Assembly (NCBI GenBank): GCA_964434935.1
Contig: CAYSWS010000005.1
Span: forward strand, 1 to 52,918
Direction: 5' to 3'
DNA length: 52,918 nucleotides
From: an uncultured Candidatus Saccharibacteria bacterium
Lineage (GTDB): Bacteria; Patescibacteriota; WWE3; UBA101185; UBA10185
Under the pieces are notes generated by a model. It had not been told where the DNA came from. It did not search any database and saw only the letters and a list, made by a program, of their open reading frames with translations. This document shows, piece after piece, positions 22,574 to 43,945 of the stretch. Position numbers and translations under genes: made by a program. Within the stretch, counting starts at the first letter, position 1. Every line of letters begins with the position of its first letter.

Positions 22574-22602
22574 ATTATACAATAAACATTGCAACGTGTC
22601 AA
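22574..22602 (-). promoter_or_regulatory. consensus sigma70 promoter
   Basis: TTGACA-17bp-TATAAT on the minus strand. Confidence 0.8.
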
Positions 22603-22613
22603 TACTATAGGTC

Positions 22614-22922: not shown

Positions 22923-23762
22923 TTACAAGTGGTCGATGGCTTTTTGCAAATGCCGCCGGGCGGAGATCAGCTCATTTTCTGTTAGATCTTCCACCGTCTT
23001 ATTTATGTGGTATCTGGCCCACCTGGCACAGAGAGAGTGTGGCCTGTCTTCGAGCAGATGCTCAAGCGTTTTGTAGTGCAAGTTGAGGGCGTTTACTAAG
23101 GACCTTAGGGTCCCGTTTGTTACAAACTCATCTTCATTGGATGTGATCTCCAACAGCGATTCCAAAGCCCCTTTTACATAATCTTGGATCCGGCTCAACC
23201 TCTCCAATCTGGATTCAACTGCGCTTAGTCTCCCATCAAGGTGCGTGTTGATAATGTCAATCTGCTCTATTCGATCAAGCACCGCTCCTGTTAAAGCTGT
23301 TTGTTCAACTGCCTTAAGCGGTTCTTCGATCCACGCCTTCTCAAGAAGTTTCCAGAGATTATTTGACTCTCTTTCATAACTTGACTTTGTGTGCTCCGAC
23401 AGCTGACGTTGCAGAGAAAGAACACTTTCGAGTTGTTGATAGATCAAAAGCTTGAAGTCGTCTTCGCCCCTTTTTATGATTCCCAAGGCATATAAGGACG
23501 CTTTACGCATCTTTCTTAGTTTGGGAACAGAGACGGGGTAATACTTTGGTAAAGGTATCCACCTTGGATTAAGATAAGTCTTGCTTAATCTGAATCTGGT
23601 GCGCATTACCTTGCCGCGGCTTTTCCAGGTGATGCGGATCCTTCCTTTTATAACAAGAAGCATGCGCGTCCCGGGAATTCTTTTAACTTCTAACGAACCG
23701 TCCTTTATGGCTTTCCAAACTCTTTCCCACGTAAGTGCCGGAGTGTTTTTCTTCCGCGCCAT
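22923..23762 (-). CDS. hypothetical protein (basic N-terminus, helical C-terminus)
   Basis: 279-aa ORF; TTGCAC-17-TATAAT promoter, GGGAG SD, own terminator. Confidence 0.7.
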   Translation of the reverse strand: MARKKNTPALTWERVWKAIKDGSLEVKRIPGTRMLLVIKGRIRITWKSRGKVMRTRFRLSKTYLNPRWIPLPKYYPVSVPKLRKMRKASLYALGIIKRGEDDFKLLIYQQLESVLSLQRQLSEHTKSSYERESNNLWKLLEKAWIEEPLKAVEQTALTGAVLDRIEQIDIINTHLDGRLSAVESRLERLSRIQDYVKGALESLLEITSNEDEFVTNGTLRSLVNALNLHYKTLEHLLEDRPHSLCARWARYHINKTVEDLTENELISARRHLQKAIDHL

Positions 23763-27382: not shown

Positions 27383-29583
27383 GCCCGTTTTTTCCCGTAA
27401 TAAAAAAGCATCCAAGTCAAGCCAGCAAATATCATGAGCACCAAACCGTATTTAACCGTGGGAGCAATATAAGCCACCAAAATAGGAGCGATGATGACCG
27501 AAACCAGGTTGATGACCTTGAGCAAAGGATTTAAAGCCGGCCCGGCCGTGTCTTTGAGGGGATCGCCTACGGTGTCGCCTATTACGCTGGCTTTGTGAGG
27601 ATCTGATCCTTTACCGCCATAATTTCCTTCTTCGATGTATTTTTTGGCATTGTCCCAGGCACCGCCGGCATTAGACATGAAGACGGCAAATAGTTGTCCG
27701 GACAAGATCAAGCCCACTAAAAAGCCGCCCAAAGGCTCTACGCCTAGCAAAAGCCCCACCAGCACCGGCGTGGATACAGCTAGGAAAGCAATGGGTAAAA
27801 GCTCTTTTTGCGCCGATTTGGTACAAATAGCCACCGCGTTGGCATAATCAGGTTTTTTGGTGCCGCTCATAATGCCGGGGATCTTGAACTGCCTTCTTAC
27901 TTCTTCGATGATGGTTGAAGCGGCCCTGGAGACGGCCTCTATCAAGCGCGCACTGAAAAGCAGCGGCAAAGCCCCACCAATTAACAGCCCCACAAACACC
28001 AAAGGTTCTGAGGCTCTGATGCCTCCGGCCAAAGTTCCTACGCTCACCTTTTCCACATCTGTTATGAACGAACCAAACAACGACACGGCGGCAATGACGG
28101 CGCTGCCAATAGCTACGCCTTTGGTAATAGCTTTGGTTGTGTTGCCGGCCGAATCCAGTCGCGCTAGTATGACCTGACCTTTAGTATTTATTTTGGCCAT
28201 TTCACCAATACCACCGGCGTTGTCAGAAATTGGCCCAAAAGAATCCATGGCTACATTGTTTCCCGTTAAGGTAAGCATGCCTATACCCGTCAATGAAACG
28301 CCGTAAAGAACGTAAACGGCGGGGAATCCTGAGTAAATGACAATAGCGCCTATGATGGTGATGGCGATCACAAGGATGGACCACACACTCGATTCCAGAC
28401 CTACAGACAATCCGGAAAGGATGGTAGTGGCAGGCCCACTTTTGGTTTGTTCGGCGATCTTTTGCACGGGCGCATGGGCGGAGTCAGTAAAATAAGTGGT
28501 GAGATGATCGATGACAATAGCCAAGATGACACCAATGACCACAGAGAAGAAGGCGCGCCATTCGTTCATGTAAAAGTGTGCCAGTACCGCGAATAGCACA
28601 GCTGATATAACAGCTGAAGTATAAAATCCGCGGTTGATGGCCTTGAGAGGATTTTCGCCTTTTTTGCCTTTGACAAAAGATGTACCTATGACTGAGCTTA
28701 AGACGCCAATTCCCCTAACGATAAGCGGGAAAACTATCCATTTCACGGAACCGGTAAGTGCAGATAAAGCCAGCCCCAAGATCAATGAAGACACAATGGT
28801 CACTTCATAGCTTTCAAAAATATCAGCTGCCATCCCGGCGCAGTCGCCAACGTTGTCTCCTACCAGATCAGCCACCACAGCAGGATTACGGGGATCGTCT
28901 TCGGGAATACCGGCCTCCACCTTGCCCACTAGGTCAGCTCCCACATCAGCGGCTTTGGTGTAGATACCACCGCCTACCCTCATCAACAATGCCAGAAGTG
29001 TGCCACCAAAACCAAACCCCAACAATGCGTCCGGCGCAGCTTTGCCAAAAAGTATAAATATGAGAGTACCGCCCATAAGTCCCAACCCATCAGTCAACAT
29101 TCCCGTCACGGTACCGGCTCTGTAAGCCACCTTCAAAGCCTCGTTAGCTTTTTCCTGAGAGGCAAGTGAGGCCACGCGCACGGAAGCAGCAATGGCCATT
29201 CTCATCCCTAGGCGTCCTACCATGGCGGAAAATATAGCTCCGGCAAGAAAAGCCAGAGCTCTACCGATGGCAATTATATTTCTGGCATTATTTCCAAAAA
29301 CCTCATGAGCTTCAGTTGAGGGCTGAACAACCCAGACACTTAAGAAAAGCACGGCCACAAGTACGCTTATCATTAATCGAATAATTTTCCATTGAGAAGC
29401 CAGATAAGCCTCAGCACCTTCCTTGATAGCATTCCAAACATCCTCCATTTTTCCTCCGGGAAGCTCAGTAGCTAGGATCTGACGTCTTAGATTAAAGGCA
29501 TAAAAAAGTCCCAGGAAAGAAATTCCCAGAACTCCCACCAAACTTGCCACTTCGAAGGATGAAAATCCATGTAAACCTAGCAT
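27379..29583 (-). CDS. hppA: membrane-bound H+-translocating pyrophosphatase (K+-independent type)
   Basis: [49 protein letters not shown]. Confidence 0.95.
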
Positions 29584-29673
29584 GTGGGGATTTTATCCAA
29601 TGGGTATTAGCGTTGTCAACAGCAAGTTGATTTTTATATATCCCTTTCGAGGTAGTAAAATTATAAATAAGAG

Positions 29674-30675
29674 ATGAAAAAAACCATTTATTTATTTTAC
29701 GCACTGATATTAAACTTCTTTCTTATCTTATCGAGCATGTTCCTACCTTTTGTCAGAGACTTATTTTCCGGGAGCATGCTCTTGTTGCTTCCTTTTGTTA
29801 CTTTCAGCGCCTTAGGTTTCCTCCTGGTTTTTATGGTTCGAAAACACAATGTGGAGGGAAAATTAAAAAAGAGCCTCGATCTAGCCGGGTACTCTGCCGG
29901 ATTCATCTTGGTGGGTGTGGTTCTTCATAACCTTGCTTCCGCTCTGGGAATACTCTTGTTAAAAAAAGAAATTGAAGAGCCTGTGTTTTTCATCTTAGCC
30001 ACCGTTATTCTCCCACTGCTATTTATTGTAGGATCTACAAAGACAGTGCTTACTACCAAAAAAGTATTCCCGGTTGCCGCCGCTTTATTGTTCGTAGTGC
30101 TTTTCTTATCGTATGGTATTGGCGAAAAGAGTGACAACCCTAAATTGGAAAACACAATTGCGGAAAGTAATGACGGATTTTATGAAGATTGGAACACTTA
30201 CAAAAGTGACGATCTTGGCATTGAGTTAAAATATCCAAATAAGTACTTTGTCGAAGAGGATGACAATACAATTGGTGTGTTTTCTCCTAGATATTTATGC
30301 AGAGCAGCTGGAAGTGAGGATGCTTATCAAGAAATGAGTGAAGTTTCAATTCAGATGATCATCCACCGTGGTAAAAGTTTTGAAAGAACATGGCAAGACA
30401 TATTTGACTTCAAGTTTACCGGGAAAGAAGATTCTATCGATGGAATTAAGATAATTGACGGCAGAAAAGCCTACTATTTTTATCAGGGAGCGGAGTTGTC
30501 TTTTGGTAGGCAGGCTTTTTTAATTGATCTGGGCGAAGGTAAACTTTTGGAAATAAATGTGTATGAGCCTAGTTACACTTTTGAGTGCGAAGGCTGGGAT
30601 GGGGCTTTTACAAATGATGGGGATTATGTTTTGGCTGCAGATCAGATTATTTCTTCCATAATCTTTTTAGATTAG
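29674..30675 (+). CDS. hypothetical membrane protein with extracellular C-terminal domain
   Basis: about five TM helices, then a WNTYKS..LGIELKYP motif of exported PsbP-like domains. Confidence 0.7.
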   Translation: MKKTIYLFYALILNFFLILSSMFLPFVRDLFSGSMLLLLPFVTFSALGFLLVFMVRKHNVEGKLKKSLDLAGYSAGFILVGVVLHNLASALGILLLKKEIEEPVFFILATVILPLLFIVGSTKTVLTTKKVFPVAAALLFVVLFLSYGIGEKSDNPKLENTIAESNDGFYEDWNTYKSDDLGIELKYPNKYFVEEDDNTIGVFSPRYLCRAAGSEDAYQEMSEVSIQMIIHRGKSFERTWQDIFDFKFTGKEDSIDGIKIIDGRKAYYFYQGAELSFGRQAFLIDLGEGKLLEINVYEPSYTFECEGWDGAFTNDGDYVLAADQIISSIIFLD

Positions 30676-30726
30676 CTGTTGCTGGTTCCCCTCAGCATTG
30701 CGTACGTGCTGATATAATCAAAGAGC

Positions 30727-31365
30727 ATGAAAAAAGGTTTTGCACATGTTTTTATTTTGCTACTTTTAGTAATTGTCGGTATCGCTGTATATTTTCTAAT
30801 TTTCTACAAATCTACCTCAGCCCCAGTTGAAGAAAATATATCCCCATTTTCTGGAAATAATGCTGTTAACGAATTATTAAAGTCACAACCTGAAGAACCA
30901 AGTGAGATGTCGGGTTCAAGGCAAGAAGTAATACTTAGAGACGTTTTCAGTTTGACTTATCCTGATGATGTAGATGTTAGGGATGAGGGAGATATTATTT
31001 ATGTATCAAAATGGGGACCAACACAAAAAGTGCCCGCAGGCGTATCTGACGGGATATACTTAATTTTTAAGAAAGTATCATTAGGTGAAGTAAGTTTAGA
31101 AGATTATGTAATAAATGAGATCAACAAAACCAAGGAATTGGATACCGCAACTGCCGAAGTATTATTAGACATATCCCCAACGTCAATCAAAGATTACGAA
31201 GGATTTACATACACTGGTCGTGGTATGGGCGTGAGCAGATATATTTATATACAATCTTTGGACAAAACTACAACAATAGAGATAATCGATGCTACAGAAG
31301 ACCCGACAAATCAGGGATTTCATCAGATTGTTGAAGAAATGCTATCAACCTTTACATTCAAGTAA
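30727..31365 (+). CDS. exported hypothetical protein with pilin-like leader
   Basis: MKKGFAH plus hydrophobic helix; FSLTYP; ends MLSTFTF. Confidence 0.75.
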   Translation: MKKGFAHVFILLLLVIVGIAVYFLIFYKSTSAPVEENISPFSGNNAVNELLKSQPEEPSEMSGSRQEVILRDVFSLTYPDDVDVRDEGDIIYVSKWGPTQKVPAGVSDGIYLIFKKVSLGEVSLEDYVINEINKTKELDTATAEVLLDISPTSIKDYEGFTYTGRGMGVSRYIYIQSLDKTTTIEIIDATEDPTNQGFHQIVEEMLSTFTFK

Positions 31366-31411
31366 CTAAACCCGTTATATTAAAAACCCTCATTATAAAT
31401 ACGATGCTATA

Positions 31412-32266
31412 ATGTCCCTGATGTTGTTTAAGCAGATACAAGCCATACTGTTAGAAAAAGCCAACCATTTGAACGGCCAGTTTTTGAACTTCCTACCCAA
31501 CCTGCTAGCGGCCATCTTAGTATTGCTCTTATTTTTATTGATATCAAAGATTCTGAACAACTATTTCTACAAACTTGCAGGTAATCTAGTTAGGAAAAAA
31601 GATATAAGGAAATTTATGTCCGCTCTTTTAAAGGTATTGTTTATTTCTTTAGGAATATTGATAGCTTTAAATATATTAAACTTAAGCACGGCGGTAACAT
31701 CTATTCTAGCAGGGGCAGGAGTTGCCGGCTTAATAATCGGCTTTGCTTTGCAAGATATTATAGCCAACTACTTTTCAGGAGTAACAATATCAATTACCAA
31801 TCCGTTCAAGCCTGGTGATCTGGTGGAAATTGACGGCGAAGTTGGGGTTGTTGAAAAGATTGAATTCAGATCTACTCGGATCGTTGCCCCTGAAGGACAA
31901 GTTGTAGAAATTCCAAATAAAAATATCGTTAACCATAAGATCATCAACTATTCCCAGACAGGAGAGAGAAGAGTAGATATAAGTTCAGGCGTTTCTTATG
32001 ATAAAGACCCCGCGTTGGTTAAAAAAGTCGCATTGGAGGCTATCAAAAATGTTGACGGAATAGTAAAAGAGAGACCAATAGAGTTCTTTTTCGAAGATTA
32101 TGGAGATAGTTTTTTTAAATTTAAACTGAGAGTTTGGATGAATTTTGAAAACTCCCAAAAAGATTTTTTCTTTTTTAGATCAGAGATCTTAACAAGTCTG
32201 CTTGAGGCTTTTAATAAAAATGGGATCGAAATGCCTATCCCGGCCTCCATTGTTATCAATAAATAA
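31412..32266 (+). CDS. mscS: small-conductance mechanosensitive channel
   Basis: GFALQDIIANYFSG..PFKPGD.VEI..G.V..I..RST..IPN..I.N.S..RR. Confidence 0.92.
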   Translation: MSLMLFKQIQAILLEKANHLNGQFLNFLPNLLAAILVLLLFLLISKILNNYFYKLAGNLVRKKDIRKFMSALLKVLFISLGILIALNILNLSTAVTSILAGAGVAGLIIGFALQDIIANYFSGVTISITNPFKPGDLVEIDGEVGVVEKIEFRSTRIVAPEGQVVEIPNKNIVNHKIINYSQTGERRVDISSGVSYDKDPALVKKVALEAIKNVDGIVKERPIEFFFEDYGDSFFKFKLRVWMNFENSQKDFFFFRSEILTSLLEAFNKNGIEMPIPASIVINK

Positions 32267-32310
32267 GGTAAAAGATAGACCTGAGACAGCCAACGCTGCA
32301 AGGTTGCTTG

Positions 32311-32338
32311 GCTCCCCATACAGAACTTTATCCGAACA
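32311..32338. repeat. dif/Xer-like site copy 1
   Basis: GCTCCCCATAC AGAACT TTATCCGAACA. Confidence 0.8.
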
Positions 32339-32371
32339 ATGTTTTTGAAGGTTTTGGTATAGAAAAAGTGA

Positions 32372-32423
32372 AGGGCACCTTTAACTCGTTGAGAATGGAT
32401 CTCATTGAGAAGTAAGGTGCCCT
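32372..32423 (-). terminator. cassette 1 terminator
   Basis: AGGGCACCTT...AAGGTGCCCT then TCACTTTTTC on the minus strand. Confidence 0.7.
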
Positions 32424-32473
32424 GGGGGTTAAATAAACAACTGCAAATCTTACGAAGTCTATTTCATTACCTC

Positions 32474-32755
32474 CTAGATATTGGCCTCGCCCATATAAAA
32501 ATAATGTAAAACAAGGCCCACTGGTATTTGAACGGTTCCGATATAGTCAAAGACGTTAGTGACTTCCTCGGAAATTGGATTTCCAGTTCCTGCGCAACAA
32601 AAGTTGTGATAAACTTCGGGATTTTCTGGATTCACCAGCGCCCAAATAAAGACTTCATCACGCTGTACCTGTACTGTTAGTGGTATGCTCCCTATTGGCA
32701 TCATAACATCGAACGTATCAACTAAGGGTGCGAGATATTTCCAAATCTTTCTCAT
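32474..32755 (-). CDS. cassette 1 cargo: phage-type small hypothetical protein
   Basis: M..IWKY..MP.G...L.VQ.Q....IWALV.P....F...GTG.P....YIGTVQ..GLV.H.F pattern recalled from a widespread phage hypothetical family; TTGACT-17-TACAAT promoter, AGGAG SD. Confidence 0.75.
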   Translation of the reverse strand: MRKIWKYLAPLVDTFDVMMPIGSIPLTVQVQRDEVFIWALVNPENPEVYHNFCCAGTGNPISEEVTNVFDYIGTVQIPVGLVLHYFYMGEANI

Positions 32756-32832
32756 TGTTTCTCCTTTTTGTTGAGTTTGTTGGTGGTAATTGTACTATCC
32801 CCAGACCAACAAGTCAACACTATAGGGTGTTG

Positions 32833-32860
32833 GCTCCCCATACAGAACTTTATCCGTAGT
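32833..32860. repeat. dif/Xer-like site copy 2
   Basis: GCTCCCCATAC AGAACT TTATCCGTAGT. Confidence 0.8.
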
Positions 32861-32892
32861 GTTTTGGTGAATGTTTTTGTGTAGAAGAAAGA

Positions 32893-32942
32893 AAAAACCG
32901 CCTTGGGGTTGTGAAATTGATCACTACCTTACGGCGGTTTTT
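32893..32942 (-). terminator. cassette 2 terminator
   Basis: AAAAACCGCC...GGCGGTTTTT. Confidence 0.7.
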
Positions 32943-32964
32943 AAAGCAGATTATCTTCTCGTTT

Positions 32965-33255
32965 TTACCCACGAAGAGTTCTCAACAACTCTTTGTCTTC
33001 ATAAAGACGGACGATGAATCTCCTCAAAGGTTCATAGGAAAGAACATACTCCCAATTCTTGTCGACTGCTAAATCCTTGGAAATTACCATGAAGATTTTG
33101 ATGATGGTGTCTCCACTTGTAGGCTTGTTGCCAGAAAGGAATCGGCCTATGGTTTTTGGGTTTAAACCGCTAATTCTAGCCAGCTCTTTCTGTGTTATTC
33201 CTTTTTCTTTTAGGTATTCACTAACGATTCTTCGTCTTACACTCTCGTCGTTCAC
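32965..33255 (-). CDS. cassette 2 cargo: XRE/Cro-type HTH transcriptional regulator
   Basis: LKEKGITQKELARISGLNPKTIGRFLSG; TTGACT-17-TATAAT promoter, AGGAGG SD, GTG start. Confidence 0.85.
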   Translation of the reverse strand: MNDESVRRRIVSEYLKEKGITQKELARISGLNPKTIGRFLSGNKPTSGDTIIKIFMVISKDLAVDKNWEYVLSYEPLRRFIVRLYEDKELLRTLRG

Positions 33256-33336
33256 AGCCTAATTCCTCCTTACTGTTTTATTTGTGCGATTATAGGACAA
33301 AGTTATTAACAAGTCAACACTATAGGATAGTGGGCC

Positions 33337-33364
33337 CCCCCCCATACAGAACTTTATCCGAACA
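33337..33364. repeat. dif/Xer-like site copy 3 (left arm in a C9 run)
   Basis: CCCCCCCATAC AGAACT TTATCCGAACA. Confidence 0.8.
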
Positions 33365-33398
33365 AAGTTATTGAATATTTTGGTATAGAAAAAGTACA

Positions 33399-33434
33399 GG
33401 GCACCTAAAACTTTTGAAAAAGAAATAGGTGCCC
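33399..33434 (-). terminator. cassette 3 terminator
   Basis: GGGCACCTA...TAGGTGCCC then TGTACTTTTTC on the minus strand. Confidence 0.7.
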
Positions 33435-33454
33435 CAAGGGCGATCTTGTAAACA

Positions 33455-33973
33455 TCATGGCGGACAAACCGCTTCAATCTCCAAGACTCGCCAAACAGGA
33501 ACAGAAGTTAGTTCTCCCTCGTCAAGTACAAATGCCCAACCCAGTTCCCGATATTTCTGGTATTCCCCAAGATTTAGCAGATAGATTTTTGCTCTATCGA
33601 GGTTTGTTGGGACGGCTTGGGTGCTGATTGACCAGCCCCCGATAGGAACACAATCTTGGCCAGGCGCGGGTCTGTAGTGTTGGGAATCAAGCTCTGCTTG
33701 TGTTGCTCCTATGCTATAAAGGTATCGTGCCTCGTCTATAGCGTAGTAAGCTTTCTCAGCTTGAGGTGGAAGAAATAGTGCAATGAGCAGCCCCGACACC
33801 GCAATAAATGCATAGATCACGAGAACTCCGCGGTTTCCTCTGTCGTTTTCTTCCTTTCCTTTTCGAATATCAATTACCAAGGCCGCAGAGAGAACGAAGG
33901 CAAACCATATAAGCATAAACCCTGTATACCTAGCGATCGAGGACCAAAAAGCAGCCCAGTCAGTGTAGTACAT
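33455..33973 (-). CDS. cassette 3 cargo: two-TM membrane protein
   Basis: two N-terminal TM helices; TTGGCA-17-GATAAT promoter, AGGAG SD. Confidence 0.75.
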   Translation of the reverse strand: MYYTDWAAFWSSIARYTGFMLIWFAFVLSAALVIDIRKGKEENDRGNRGVLVIYAFIAVSGLLIALFLPPQAEKAYYAIDEARYLYSIGATQAELDSQHYRPAPGQDCVPIGGWSISTQAVPTNLDRAKIYLLNLGEYQKYRELGWAFVLDEGELTSVPVWRVLEIEAVCPP

Positions 33974-34074
33974 TTTTCTTCTCCTTATTTGGGATTAGAT
34001 ATGGGAATAACGTGATTATTTCTAAGTGTTATTATCGCAAGTAACAAGGAAACTGCCAACACTATAGGATAGTA

Positions 34075-34102
34075 GCTCCCCATACGGAACTTTATCCGAA
34101 GT
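34075..34102. repeat. dif/Xer-like site copy 4
   Basis: GCTCCCCATAC GGAACT TTATCCGAAGT (reverse complement ACTTCGGATAA AGTTCC GTATGGGGAGC). Confidence 0.8.
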
Positions 34103-34145
34103 TTAATCCTGTTCGAAATAGATTAATGCATATTATACTTAGGCT

Positions 34146-34898
34146 ATGAAAGTTAAATATATAAAAGACATAGATTATGATTCTGAGATATTGTGGATTA
34201 TGTTGTCCAGTCCTGATCCGGCAGGTAATAAAAACAGAGCAACAAGTATGGGACTGGAAATGAATACCTACGAAAAGATAGCTAAGGCAGAAGATTACAA
34301 GGATATAAAAGATTTCATTCTGAAACTAGTAGAAGAAAAATATAAAGAAAATAGCATTACAATTAGCAAAGCTCCAGCTTTATATCAGAAGGCTTGGAAT
34401 AAAATAAACGATAAATTTTCAGATAATATTGAGAAGATAACAAACACCAAATGGCACCACGACACGTTTTTTGTGGTCTTAAGTCCATTCCACATTGGGG
34501 TCAGCAATACTGGAGGTGATAAAGTCATCAGATCAATTTTTGAAGATCCTGAGGATCAAAAAAGGATCACAGCACATGAGATTTTAATGTCACATATCTG
34601 GAATATCATGTTTGATAGTTTTGGGGATAAAGCAAAGCAGGACTCGTATATGCATTATTGGGGTTTGAATGAAATAGCTACCACTGCTGTTCTTGGGCTC
34701 GAATCGGAGATGAATGATTTATGGACGCAAAATTATAAAGGTTATGATAACTACCTAGGAAACTATCCCCAACTGAAAAAGCTTCAAAATAAAATGAAGG
34801 ATGTATATTTAGCGAAAAATAGCTTTACTGATTTTTTAAATGAGGGAATCTCAATAATCGAGTCAGAATATAAAGAAATCCCGCTGTATTTGATTTAA
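34146..34898 (+). CDS. AT-rich hypothetical protein, possible zincin-like
   Basis: 250-aa ORF with ITAHEILMSH and downstream LNE. Confidence 0.7.
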   Translation: MKVKYIKDIDYDSEILWIMLSSPDPAGNKNRATSMGLEMNTYEKIAKAEDYKDIKDFILKLVEEKYKENSITISKAPALYQKAWNKINDKFSDNIEKITNTKWHHDTFFVVLSPFHIGVSNTGGDKVIRSIFEDPEDQKRITAHEILMSHIWNIMFDSFGDKAKQDSYMHYWGLNEIATTAVLGLESEMNDLWTQNYKGYDNYLGNYPQLKKLQNKMKDVYLAKNSFTDFLNEGISIIESEYKEIPLYLI

Positions 34899-35020
34899 AA
34901 AGCCAGTTTTAATTTCAAAAAAACCGCTACACGTGAGAAATACTAAGACGACCGCTAGGACTAGTTGAAAATACCGGTATATTAGTGAAATTGGGGATTT
35001 CAGAACCTCAGAGCATGCTG

Positions 35021-35095
35021 TGGCTCCCTCGGGTGGACTCGAACCACCAACCTACCGGTTAACAGCCGGGCGCTCTGCCATTGAGCTACGAGGGA
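35021..35095 (-). tRNA. tRNA-Asn(GTT)
   Basis: TCCCTCG/CGAGGGA acceptor stem, CT-GTT-AA loop, GGTTCGAGTCC, GCCA end. Confidence 0.96.
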
Positions 35096-35187
35096 TCATG
35101 TTCGTGCAGCATAAAACCTTAGAGAAAACTCCCGCGCTACACGCGTAGAACAAAAAGATGTTATCACAATGATATAGGAAAGTGAAA

Positions 35188-36036
35188 TTACTTGGAAGCC
35201 GCGCCGCTCTTGGCTAGATGATAGATGACAACAATGCCGTAGAAGGCATTAAAACCCAAGAACCAATAGGGAAAGGCCGGTTCCGATCCCACCAGTATAA
35301 AGGCCACTTCCATGCTCAAGGGCAAAGTAATAGTGTGTAGGGCTATCTTGTAATAAGTCCTGAAATTCTTCTTCATTTTCAAAACATTTCCCATAGCCAT
35401 AAGTATCAAGGCCACTAAAAAGAGATAGGCTAATCTAAAAGCCATAAAGTAAAAAAGCGTTCCCACTAGGACAAAAGAAATAATGAGCAGCGGAATATAT
35501 TTTGAAAAAGACCTTACATTTTCGACCAAAGCCGTCACATCATCCTTGGTCACCTTACCATCAGGCATGGTTTCCAGCGGATAGACCTCAATTCGGTTCT
35601 GATTGCCCAGCACTATCAAATTCACATCATTTACGATCATGAAAGTATCCATCTCTTCCAGATCGTTGATGGTGCCTTGGTGGTCCAGGACAACCAAATT
35701 CTCGGGGAAATCAACTTCTTCGGCGGTGAAGAATTCCGGAGCTTTTATGGCAAAGGGCTCGGGCTGGTTAATTTGCCACATGCCGTCTTGTACGGTTATT
35801 TCCAGGCGGCTAGGGTAAGTAGCCAAGAATTCGTCCAGCAAATTGTTGAGGATGTTTCGAACCCTGGGTATGGCCGGAACGGCAAACCTGACCGTGGTAA
35901 GCAGTGTGGCCACCAGCGCCAAACTAATAAAATACTTAAAAGAAAAATCAGCCTTAACTTTGAGCAGGTCTTTGTAGTAGTCCACATCGATCAAACTTCT
36001 TCTGTAGACATACCAGAAAGCTTTCAGTCGTTTCAT
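35188..36036 (-). CDS. DUF1189-like membrane protein
   Basis: N-terminal TM helix, extracellular domain, C-terminal TM helices with YKIALHTITLP. Confidence 0.65.
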   Translation of the reverse strand: MKRLKAFWYVYRRSLIDVDYYKDLLKVKADFSFKYFISLALVATLLTTVRFAVPAIPRVRNILNNLLDEFLATYPSRLEITVQDGMWQINQPEPFAIKAPEFFTAEEVDFPENLVVLDHQGTINDLEEMDTFMIVNDVNLIVLGNQNRIEVYPLETMPDGKVTKDDVTALVENVRSFSKYIPLLIISFVLVGTLFYFMAFRLAYLFLVALILMAMGNVLKMKKNFRTYYKIALHTITLPLSMEVAFILVGSEPAFPYWFLGFNAFYGIVVIYHLAKSGAASK

Positions 36037-38569: not shown

Positions 38570-39159
38570 TGAAGACGCAGCTGGTGTCCGTGCAAGAAAA
38601 TACCGTGCTCAAAGTTGTGGAAGATACGCAGTTTGTGCTTGGTGTGGCGGAGTTTAGTCCGGAGAAGAACTATGCATTGTCGTTGATGTTCGAAAAACCC
38701 GGAGTAGAGGCGGAAATTGTGGGCATTTTTAGACTTTCTCAAGGTCAAGCTCTCAATTTGGCTACTTCCGCCGTGCACAAGGCACCTCAAACCAAATGTT
38801 TTACCTATGTTAAAGGGGTTTTGCTGGACAATGCCCGCTCTGATTATGTGGGCAAGATCATTATTGAAAAAAAAGCCCAGCAGACCAGTTCTTATCTGGA
38901 AGAAAATGTTATTGTGGTGGGAGAAAACACGCATAACAATTCACAGCCCATTTTGGAGATCGAGGCCGATGACGTGAAAGCCTCCCATGGAGCCACTACG
39001 GGCAGAATTGATGATGAGCAAATTTATTACCTGCGCACCAGGGGACTTTCCAACCAAGAAGCGGAAAACGTTATCATAGAGGGATTTTTCAATAGCTTAC
39101 TAAACAGGATAAAAGATGAGAAAATAAGGCATAAAGTTGCTGAAAAACTATATGCTTGA
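38569..39159 (+). CDS. sufD: short SufD-family protein
   Basis: PILEIEADDVKASHGATTGRIDDEQIYYLRTRG; operon position; only 196 aa. Confidence 0.88.
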   Translation: MKTQLVSVQENTVLKVVEDTQFVLGVAEFSPEKNYALSLMFEKPGVEAEIVGIFRLSQGQALNLATSAVHKAPQTKCFTYVKGVLLDNARSDYVGKIIIEKKAQQTSSYLEENVIVVGENTHNNSQPILEIEADDVKASHGATTGRIDDEQIYYLRTRGLSNQEAENVIIEGFFNSLLNRIKDEKIRHKVAEKLYA

Positions 39160-41397: not shown

Positions 41398-41452
41398 AAA
41401 GGCAAGAAGTTCATCATGGGTGATTAGCTCAGTTGGTAGAGCAGTCGTCTTA
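41398..41452 (+). pseudogene. duplicated leader plus 5' half of tRNA-Ile
   Basis: near-identical to 41473-41527 (75-bp offset), truncated in the anticodon loop. Confidence 0.8.
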
Positions 41453-41492
41453 CGTTTGTGAGCGTAGCGAACAAAGGCAAGACGTTAAACAT

Positions 41493-41568
41493 GGGTGATT
41501 AGCTCAGTTGGTAGAGCAGTCGTCTTATACACGACCGGTCCCTGGTTCGAGCCCAGGATCACCCACCA
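41493..41568 (+). tRNA. tRNA-Ile(TAT)
   Basis: GGGTGAT/ATCACCC acceptor stem, GTCGT-CTTATAC-ACGAC anticodon arm, GGTTCGAGCCC, ACCA. Confidence 0.9.
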
Positions 41569-42100: not shown

Positions 42101-42976
42101 TTACAAAACCCCAAGTTCGGTCTTTTCTTCTTCAGTTTCTCTTTCGATGAATTCCAAATATCTTTCCGTAGTGGAAACTCTTATATGCCCCGCAATTTTT
42201 GATACGTGCAGTAAGTTAGTGCCATTGGCCAAATGATGAGCCACAAAAGTGTGTCTGAGATCATTTACTTTGGCATTTTCCACGCCGGCAATATCATAAT
42301 ATCTCTGAATAGTAGACCTGATGTTCCTGATAAGCATGGCATTACCTGTTTTAGTTATGAACACATGATCGGCCCCATCCAGTTTAGGCCTGTCACCTTC
42401 TATGTAGGCTTTTAAGGCGTCAATGGCGGCCTTGTTCAAAGGAATATTCCTGGAAGGTCTGCTATTTTTAGCGGGTACAAAAAGATTTCCCGGACTGGCA
42501 TCCAGTTTAAGATGCTCCAGCTTCATGCCGGCTAATTCGGAGATAGTGATGCCTGTCTGCAGCAATGTTTCGATCATGGCGTAAGTTCTAGCGTCATCTC
42601 TGGCCGCGTCTCTTAAGGCCCTATATTCCAGCTTAGATAGTATCCTTGGAGGCTTCACATCAACTTTAGGGTGTTTCAACATGTCGGCTGCATTGGTAAC
42701 TACCAAGGACTCATCGACCAAGTATCTGAAAAATGTTTTAGTGGAGTTGGTCTTTCTGGAAATAGACTTAGGAGTATAGTCTTCTTTAGCCAGTTTTTTC
42801 ATATAACTTTCCAGATGGGTAAGTTCAATCTCATCGACCTTTCCCAAGCCTTGTTTTTCTAAATATTCGATCAATTGTTCAATATCTTTACCATAAGCGA
42901 CCAAAGTAGATTCAGATCTGCCCAAGCCTCCCAGGTAATCGATAAAGTTTTTGTGAGCTTCTTTTAAAGCAATCAT
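42101..42976 (-). CDS. XerC/XerD-family tyrosine recombinase with atypical active site
   Basis: N-terminal core-binding domain (S..TL.AY.KD..Q..SISRK..S.K.FF.YL), DLRHTF, GH..VSTT.RY. Confidence 0.85.
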   Translation of the reverse strand: MIALKEAHKNFIDYLGGLGRSESTLVAYGKDIEQLIEYLEKQGLGKVDEIELTHLESYMKKLAKEDYTPKSISRKTNSTKTFFRYLVDESLVVTNAADMLKHPKVDVKPPRILSKLEYRALRDAARDDARTYAMIETLLQTGITISELAGMKLEHLKLDASPGNLFVPAKNSRPSRNIPLNKAAIDALKAYIEGDRPKLDGADHVFITKTGNAMLIRNIRSTIQRYYDIAGVENAKVNDLRHTFVAHHLANGTNLLHVSKIAGHIRVSTTERYLEFIERETEEEKTELGVL

Positions 42977-43746: not shown

Positions 43747-43868
43747 GCCGATGTTTCGCGCCGATGTTGCGTCTCACTGCGTTCGACGAGCATCGGCACT
43801 CACGTTGTTCGCGCCGATGTTGCGTCTCACGGTGTTCGACGCGCATCAGCTTGTCACTGACGTTCCAA
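43747..43868 (+). repeat. tandem 53-bp hairpin repeats built on the tRNA-Met acceptor stem
   Basis: TTCGCGCCGATGTTGCGTCTCAC at 43755 and 43808; GCCGATG/CATCGGC stems. Confidence 0.8.
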
Positions 43869-43945
43869 GCCGATGTAGCTCAGGCGGTTAGAGCGGACGT
43901 TTCATAAGCGTCAGGTCGTCGGTTCGAGTCCGACCATCGGCACCA
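43869..43945 (+). tRNA. tRNA-Met(CAT), probably elongator
   Basis: GCCGATG/CATCGGC acceptor stem, TT-CAT-AA loop, GGTTCGAGTCC, ACCA. Confidence 0.9.

Follow-up and report, generated by a model that had tools for sequence, protein, structure and literature searches.

A tRNA-Asn-anchored stack of one-gene units in a WWE3-type bacterium, with repeats that are probable attachment-site junctions of large serine recombinase elements

A 52,918-nucleotide stretch of DNA (the window: contig CAYSWS010000005.1 of assembly GCA_964434935.1, positions 1 to 52,918) from an uncultured Candidatus Saccharibacteria bacterium, placed by GTDB in the WWE3 lineage of the Patescibacteriota, carries a stack of short gene units, or cassettes, separated by direct repeats and ending at a tRNA-Asn(GTT) gene. 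A preliminary description, made from the sequence alone, had taken the repeats for dif-like sites of Xer recombinases. In relatives, large serine recombinase (LSR) genes have this repeat as their coding 3' end, and very probably the copies described here are attachment-site junctions left by LSR elements whose insertion target is the tRNA-Asn 3' end.

Four direct repeats lie within 32311..34102, at the places and with the spacings (522, 504 and 738 bp) first described; a 25-mer (at most 3 mismatches) matches the window four times, at 32310, 32832, 33336 and 34074, and had no match in 100 shuffles. A mismatch scan and a profile scan of the genome's 27 contigs (847-kb assembly) found only these four copies, with profile scores of 47–63; in the reversed genome the sole match scoring at least 10 reached 22.5. 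The copies are real, and their boundaries had to be redrawn: the junctions start at TGG, 2 bp left of the sites as first drawn (Table 1), and site 3 has four extra bases in a C run, so that its right part is in register from 33335. The repeat start TGGCTCCC is the reverse complement of the 3' end of the tRNA-Asn gene (35021–35095). This end, at 35021, is a fifth junction that the preliminary description had missed, and the array therefore comprises four units, the fourth of which (34073–35020, 948 bp) holds a 250-aa plus-strand gene. The contents of the other three were as described, with one main minus-strand gene per interval (a DUF7352 protein of 93 aa, an HTH_3 protein of 96 aa and a 172-aa protein of no family), a left, promoter-bearing arm at sites 2–4 and a tail at sites 1–3. 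One contig of sample X1, possibly the source of the studied assembly, covers 29500–35205 unbroken and three other samples yield matching pieces (99% or more), so the repeats are no assembly artefact, a concern raised at the outset.

Junction 1 combines an 8-bp core common to the tRNA-Asn 3' end with an attP-type right half; the core of junction 3 was probably damaged by C-run expansion. A promoter scan called 5 sites (shuffle mean 7.6), of which the three best lie at cassette heads. The cassette 1 promoter overlaps the arm GTCAA.ACTATAGG (32813–32826), whose end is 4 bp left of the next junction. The arm stands 4 bp left of TGG both here and in an array behind tRNA-His described below, and it holds the promoter −35 box. 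Terminators of the cassettes were not called by the scan; hairpins are seen by eye at about 32374–32424, 32892–32943 and 33399–33433. No specific defence family was matched by the cassette proteins: PHROGs and PADLOC gave only generic HTH matches for the cassette 2 protein, and an Atlas search matched the 250-aa protein to unnamed clusters and yielded nothing of use for the 172-aa protein. The cassette 4 gene has a 42% identical homologue directly behind the same repeat in genome G107 (G, C and L denote genomes, contigs and loci). To the left of the array, tblastn found no mscS homologue in the fetched loci of relatives, so this flank is not conserved.

Table 1. Features of the array and its immediate neighbours (positions in the window).
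Feature	Position	Strand	Description
mscS	31412..32266	+	left neighbour, outside the array; Pfam MS_channel domains
Junction 1	32309..32362	+	outermost; no left arm; 17-codon tail to TAG (WLPIQNFIRTMFLKVLV)
Cassette 1	32309..32830		522 bp
Cassette 1 gene	32474..32755	-	DUF7352 / phrog_3848, 93 aa, function unknown
Cassette 1 head	32789..32826	-	sigma70-like promoter: −35 at 32817, −10 ending 32789
Junction 2	32831..32884	+	17-codon tail (WLPIQNFIRSVLVNVFV); tRNA 3' end in its place in X4 variant
Cassette 2 gene	32965..33255	-	XRE/HTH_3 protein, 96 aa; unit 32831–33334, 504 bp
Cassette 2 head	33289..33326	-	promoter with 11/12 consensus, and arm (33313–33326)
Junction 3	33331..33388	+	C-run expansion (+4 bp) in core; tail still open (PIQNFIRTKLLNILV)
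Cassette 3 gene	33455..33973	-	172 aa, hydrophobic N-terminus, no family; unit 33335–34072, 738 bp
Cassette 3 head	34031..34068	-	promoter and arm (34055–34068)
Junction 4	34073..34126	+	different tail type (LPIRNFIRSLILFEID); first codon mutated to TAG
Cassette 4 gene	34146..34898	+	250 aa, no family; unit 34073–35020, 948 bp, 34.5% GC
tRNA-Asn(GTT)	35021..35095	-	3' end is target half-site and fifth junction
DUF1189 gene	35188..36036	-	right neighbour of tRNA-Asn, conserved across the family

Read from TGG, the four sites encode (W)LPI(Q/R)NFIR and then 8 further residues before a stop; the corresponding reading of the tRNA end is WLPRVDSN. In relatives, the 3' ends of LSR genes run through the junction (L152, L240, L221, whose LSR has 489 aa, L222–L226 and L208). 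The intact 544-aa LSR of L152, with Resolvase, Recombinase and zinc-ribbon domains, ends WLPIQNFIRSLVPMFAEAN across the repeat and a second LSR, in L240, ends WLPIVVFIRSLIPVLV; a relative 93% identical to the L152 protein ends WLRGQDSDL, a tRNA-type tail as judged from the peptide alone. Among 28 distinct tRNA-Asn loci, the repeat was on the same side of the tRNA in 13, and an open reading frame of 479–557 codons ran in frame into the tRNA 3' end in 8 (a biased count, see below). Locus pairs show the exchange of one tail for the other. L221, from the same genus as the studied genome, and L126 have the same left flank (an LSR 3' end, 88% identity) joined to the tRNA in one locus and to the repeat in the other; the same holds for L239 and L240 (85%) and for L130 and L159 (98%), and the last two have only 7 bp in common on the right, which bounds the crossover. 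The same unit also occurs behind unrelated neighbours, with identity from TGG onwards (L030/L140, L033/L144 and L126/L128/L129/L146). Because the peptide ends LSR genes, and related LSR 3' ends join either tRNA-Asn or the repeat, we read the repeat as an attP half-site.

The coding character of the repeat extends beyond intact LSR genes. The frame was open for at least 14 codons at 89 of 99 distinct sites, and codon 8 varied almost only at its third base (entropy 0.14/0.29/1.81 over these 99 sites). In units too small for an LSR, 37 of 39 tail frames were open for at least 14 codons, and hydrophobic residues filled 125 of 156 positions (codons 11, 12, 14 and 15), compared with 74 on average and 92 at most over 2,000 shuffles, the small units not being independent samples. 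The profile used in this coding test contained positions 2–30 only; a version that included tail positions gave nearly the same result. Open hydrophobic tails in small units fit selection for tail donation and recent descent from LSR elements equally. A separate reading of the 8 bp complementary to the tRNA, as a tRNA-primer or retroelement trace, was dropped once LSR genes were found to end at the site.

These data suggest how the array may have formed. The attP would lie inside the 3' end of the LSR gene, with its right half (P') encoding the final ~17 residues (WLPIQNFIR...), and the other right half would come from the 3' end of the tRNA. Insertion would restore the tRNA, fuse the LSR to a tRNA-derived tail (WLPRVDSN...) and move P' to the far end of the element. 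New arrivals would enter beside the tRNA and older units would shift outward, so that each internal joint would consist of the head of the older unit and the P' of the newer one; following this logic, site 1 would have no arm, sites 2–4 would join older head to newer P', and unit 4 would be the newest. The four units here are without a recombinase and consist of P', one gene and a head, with a promoter in three of the four heads. Such units would need an LSR in trans or from a neighbouring element. We infer the growth of the array at the tRNA-Asn 3' end, the order of arrival, a circular intermediate and a helper enzyme. Serial insertion of self-promoted single-gene units at one chromosomal site, as first envisaged, is thus supported, and a serine-recombinase att site, which the preliminary description had left open, is the option favoured by the evidence. 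On balance, we lean slightly towards small units that travel alone. A bolder proposal is that the units are independently mobile one-gene circles, the serine-recombinase counterpart of integron cassettes, which carry the last 12–17 recombinase codons under selection; landing would swap the tail of a tRNA-fused LSR, so that the cassette switches on or re-tunes its own helper enzyme. We consider this proposal speculative and rather unlikely.

The geometry of the site points to where exchange occurs. Exchange is confined to the first 7–8 bp (TGGCTCCC), outside the 6-bp spacer of the 11-6-11 dif architecture proposed earlier. The L222, L223 and L240 LSR genes have an inverted motif copy left of the junction (by eye), which would put the centre at positions 5–7, and we place the presumed crossover at TC or CC within these positions. 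Relative to its place in the tRNA, the distal motif of the repeat is clearly displaced outward by 5 bp in the tRNA-His array (7 junctions), where the mean match was 6.6/9 at shift 5 and at most 3.9 at other shifts; at Asn-type sites the shift was ambiguous (see below).

This second array lies in the studied genome (G000) behind tRNA-His(GTG), at C8:38994–44491, and its repeats read WLI(D/E)xNLN. Its seven junctions are at 38994, 40512, 41276, 41773, 42579, 43113 and 43605, and two of them have the same GTCAA arm as the Asn cassettes. Lone GTCAA.ACTATAGG arms also occur over minus-strand promoters with no adjacent repeat, at 22598–22611 of the window and at C3:39790, C8:30539 and C13:387 of the genome (10 genome-wide, against 1 in the reversed control). 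They may be an operator, or what is left of decayed cassette heads.

The number of genes in the stack varies between strains of the species. In run X4, a contig of depth 8.19 joins 32830 straight to the tRNA at 35021, skipping 2,190 bp, with 8 letters at the joint that fit both sides. The 22+8 bases of this contig at the joint equal the last 30 bases of the contig that covers 32308–32838 at depth 9.8, as expected at a branch of the assembly graph. Depth was 9.8–11 over cassette 1 and about 10 over the left flank, and bins over cassettes 2–4 had 0–4. Together, the joint and the depths indicate a form of the locus in which cassette 1 adjoins tRNA-Asn, and this form could be an ancestor or a deletion. 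Uncovered parts in X2, X4 and X5 were counted as absence only where a contig joins across them.

To survey the distribution of the site, we searched genomes of the family, species genomes, metagenomes and viral contigs. A 21-mer (at most 3 mismatches) was found in 25 of 86 family genomes, the studied genome included, with 2 control matches; a 14-mer pattern search of the same 86 genomes was uninformative, control matches being nearly as frequent. The exact gapped pattern occurred in 13 stretches among species genomes, all titled Patescibacteria (by depositor label 3 WWE3, 2 Patescibacteria group and 8 Saccharibacteria), and in 37 metagenome stretches. Viral contigs had 0 matches to a different 23-mer and no confirmed relative of the L152 LSR (3 candidates). 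Relatives have 1–5 direct copies per stretch with unrelated small genes in between, in agreement with the variable cassette content that the preliminary description had anticipated. Intervals between sites were at most 1,500 bp in 29 of 42 cases, and of 40 short units 30 had a minus-strand main gene. A tRNA-Asn in the same orientation lies inside 10 of 33 site-bearing stretches and further off in G002, G107 and G011.

Several loci extend this picture. In G002, of the same genus as the studied genome, two 7-kb LSR elements are mixed with small units at tRNA-Asn. In L036 (G066) and L054 (G105), which belong to two genera, one pair of consecutive units recurs together with the same degenerate junctions, a match that points to block transfer. 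Asn-type repeats also occur at second loci near tRNA-Glu, -His, -Arg or -Lys or rRNA genes, away from tRNA-Asn, in L024 (G001 C17), L027 (G002 C5), L043 (G075 C6), L051 (G024 C7) and L041 (G031 C1); candidate readings are secondary targets or moved pieces of an array.

Some observations weigh against junctions of tRNA-Asn LSR elements. No LSR of the tRNA-Asn type was found in the studied assembly (94.6% complete), and its one LSR (C1:82857–84473) stops at the ychF start without a WLP tail. No circle joint was present in the contigs of 4 of 9 runs, in which rare forms are dropped, and 0 of 35 metagenome loci had a terminal repeat. The X4 joint is one contig in one of four samples. The tRNA lies within the stretch in only the 10 of 33 cases given above, and several other stretches are near tRNAs Glu, His, Arg or Lys, near rRNA genes, or short contigs. 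The count of 8 in-frame LSR-sized genes at 28 tRNA-Asn loci is biased, since 7 of 20 regions had been picked for a nearby LSR match. For Asn-type sites (n = 100), the shift test was ambiguous, with 5.39/9 at shift 5 versus 4.79 at shift 0. The GTCAA arm, inspected by eye, is no mirror image of the distal motif. The model of the preliminary description, dif-like 11-6-11 sites acted on by the two Xer-type tyrosine recombinases of the host, fares far worse. One arm does resemble XerC arms, the middle 6 bp vary among relatives, and enzymes are at hand: there is a tyrosine recombinase in all 86 family genomes and two in most, the studied assembly among the latter, and one lies 7 kb from tRNA-Asn here and 5–25 kb from the site in several relatives, a nearness that we read as ordinary synteny; this neighbouring enzyme is short of two catalytic residues. 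However, joints and swaps fall in the first 7–8 bp rather than the spacer, variation follows codons in what is the end of LSR genes, and the site is found in 25 of the 86 genomes that all have the enzymes. Nor does the site mark a replication terminus in the two genomes compared: there was no GC-skew switch at it in G000 C5 or in the 715-kb contig G018 C7, where skew (20 samples of 10 kb plus L034) was negative to the left and right of the site (360 kb) and changed to positive between 470 and 510 kb. The Xer model is therefore very improbable.

Two further explanations concern how the array varies. If whole loci changed chiefly by homologous recombination or transformation between conserved flanks, or repeats by slippage, the repeats being inert scars, then the failure to find a cognate LSR in this assembly and the presence of two array forms in one sample would be explained. 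At the X4 joint, however, identity amounts to no more than 8 bp, placed exactly at the tRNA end, swaps in other loci begin exactly at TGG and the left flank with mscS is not conserved among relatives, which makes inert scars improbable. The units may instead be shrunken remains of larger LSR islands, of the cis-mobilisable-element type, that lost their recombinase in place. This alternative accepts a serine-recombinase origin and ascribes change to deletion between junctions or to travel with a neighbour. It would account for P' tails that are LSR-like in units too small for an LSR (the 37 of 39 frames above), and truncated LSR ends do exist (L038, with 101 open codons before the tRNA), as do damaged junctions, which are common (site 3 here and G001 L023:7818). 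The X4 form could equally be a deletion or an ancestor, no circle was seen in the four runs at contig level or in the 35 metagenome loci, and the parts of PMC3146451 drawn on here propose such shrinkage for 15 module-less islands. Harder to reconcile with it are the non-coding head, which keeps a constant distance of 4 bp from the junction in both arrays of this genome (Asn and His) and in G001, a like head that abuts tRNA-Asn itself in G098, the 29 of 42 inter-site intervals of at most 1,500 bp, and a 453-bp one-gene unit behind two unrelated neighbours (L030/L140). The identity of L030 and L140 continues for 1,988 bp, so this unit may have moved in a larger block. We regard shrunken islands as a real possibility that falls short of an even chance. 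Insertion of LSR elements at the tRNA-Asn 3' end is the reading that we retain.

Other parts of the window and of the genome deserve mention. A 279-aa gene of no family at 22923–23762 (−) has an N-terminus like those of genes within or next to the arrays at tRNA-Asn in G031 and G002 (by eye), and the 19–24 kb stretch may be an older, eroded part of the array. A 55-bp direct repeat at 41398–41452 and 41473–41527 duplicates the 5' part of a tRNA called Ile(TAT) (41493–41568), and two 43-bp direct copies, 53 bp apart, lie at 43755–43850, just before tRNA-Met at 43869. The gene at 42101–42976 (−) encodes a tyrosine recombinase of 291 aa in which Thr occupies the first catalytic Arg position and Asp replaces the His of HxxR, the motif reading KVNDLRH rather than HxLRH. 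Of the 86 family genomes, 80 encode this protein, near tRNA-Asn; most family members read have Thr, Met or Ser where the first catalytic Arg would stand. The enzyme may be a catalytically impaired Xer partner. At G000 C1:74961–84473, a low-annotation element of ~9.5 kb has a primase-like gene, a small excisionase-like HTH gene (names by eye) and the 538-aa LSR whose end overlaps the start of ychF. In L221:12927–15497, SufB of G002 has 856 aa versus 478 aa in the studied genome, and the insertion looks like an intein (by eye).

An ordered, tRNA-anchored serine-recombinase stack offers ultra-small genomes of the Candidate Phyla Radiation (CPR) a route to gain or drop single genes. As a candidate enzyme, an attB half and an attP half are all identified, the system is open to reconstruction in a laboratory strain. 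Compact serine integrases that target tRNA genes and come with natural minimal cargo units may serve as genome-insertion tools. The array also illustrates that LSR att halves can pass for dif sites.

The closest counterpart is found in the ssrA islands of Dehalococcoides, which, in the sections of the published account considered here, are tandem islands of the serine integrase DsiB in which the dsiB 3' end always overlaps the junction (McMurdie et al. 2011, PMC3146451). According to the same sections, 15 islands are without a recombinase, and dsiB was suggested to be complete only on the circle or behind a neighbouring island (PMC3146451). The integration module of ssrA islands proper comprises six genes (dsiB, dsiA, a recF-like gene, parB, mom and one more). 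The present locus likewise has tandem units behind a tRNA-like 3' end, an LSR 3' end over the junction and recombinase-less members. It differs from what those sections describe in its target (tRNA-Asn, and tRNA-His, versus ssrA), in a repeat that keeps 7–8 bp of the tRNA end versus a 20-bp direct repeat, in units of 0.4–1.5 kb with one or few genes and their own promoter, and in its CPR host. The Dehalococcoides suggestion, that it takes the tail from a suitable neighbour to make the recombinase complete, is now testable. In serine integrases, the distal 9-bp motif is 5 bp nearer the centre in attB than in attP, as reported in the part of the study used here (Rutherford et al. 2013, PMC3783163). 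Compared with Listeria LI/A118-type integrases as covered there, the enzymes described here have the same catalytic, recombinase and zinc-ribbon domains, and in the tRNA-His array the distal motif is likewise nearer the centre in the tRNA (attB-type) than in the repeat (attP-type), a shift that was ambiguous at the Asn sites. In contrast to those integrases, the recombinase gene itself contains attP, and insertion alters the tail of the enzyme.

Serine integrases follow a strict attP × attB rule, from which repeated insertion at a used site departs. Staphylococcal SCC composites are also LSR-built (Ccr) tandem stacks at a gene end, with direct-repeat joints and ccr-less pseudo-SCC members; their units are many kb long, their target is rlmH/orfX, their enzymes are Ccr and their att site is not known to lie inside the ccr gene. 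As in integrons, small gene cassettes are stacked one-directionally from one end; unlike integrons, the array involves a serine rather than a tyrosine enzyme, cassettes with their own promoters and a tRNA gene as anchor. Neither of the assembly's two tyrosine recombinases adjoins the array (no IntI-specific model was run), and the repeats have no long inverted arms of the attC kind by eye (no attC model was run). Xer elements of the IMEX and pdif types resemble the array in short direct repeats between accessory units and in one XerC-like arm, and differ from it in junction position, in its location away from the terminus and in its coding nature. We found no publication on CPR arrays of this kind in a search that left most subscription journals outside. 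The locus works like the ssrA islands, yet is not one, and it is neither an integron nor an Xer element. The class of mechanism is already published, in the Dehalococcoides ssrA islands with DsiB; new here are the host, of WWE3 type, a joint at the tRNA seen at strain level, tail swaps in locus pairs and a coding test with controls.

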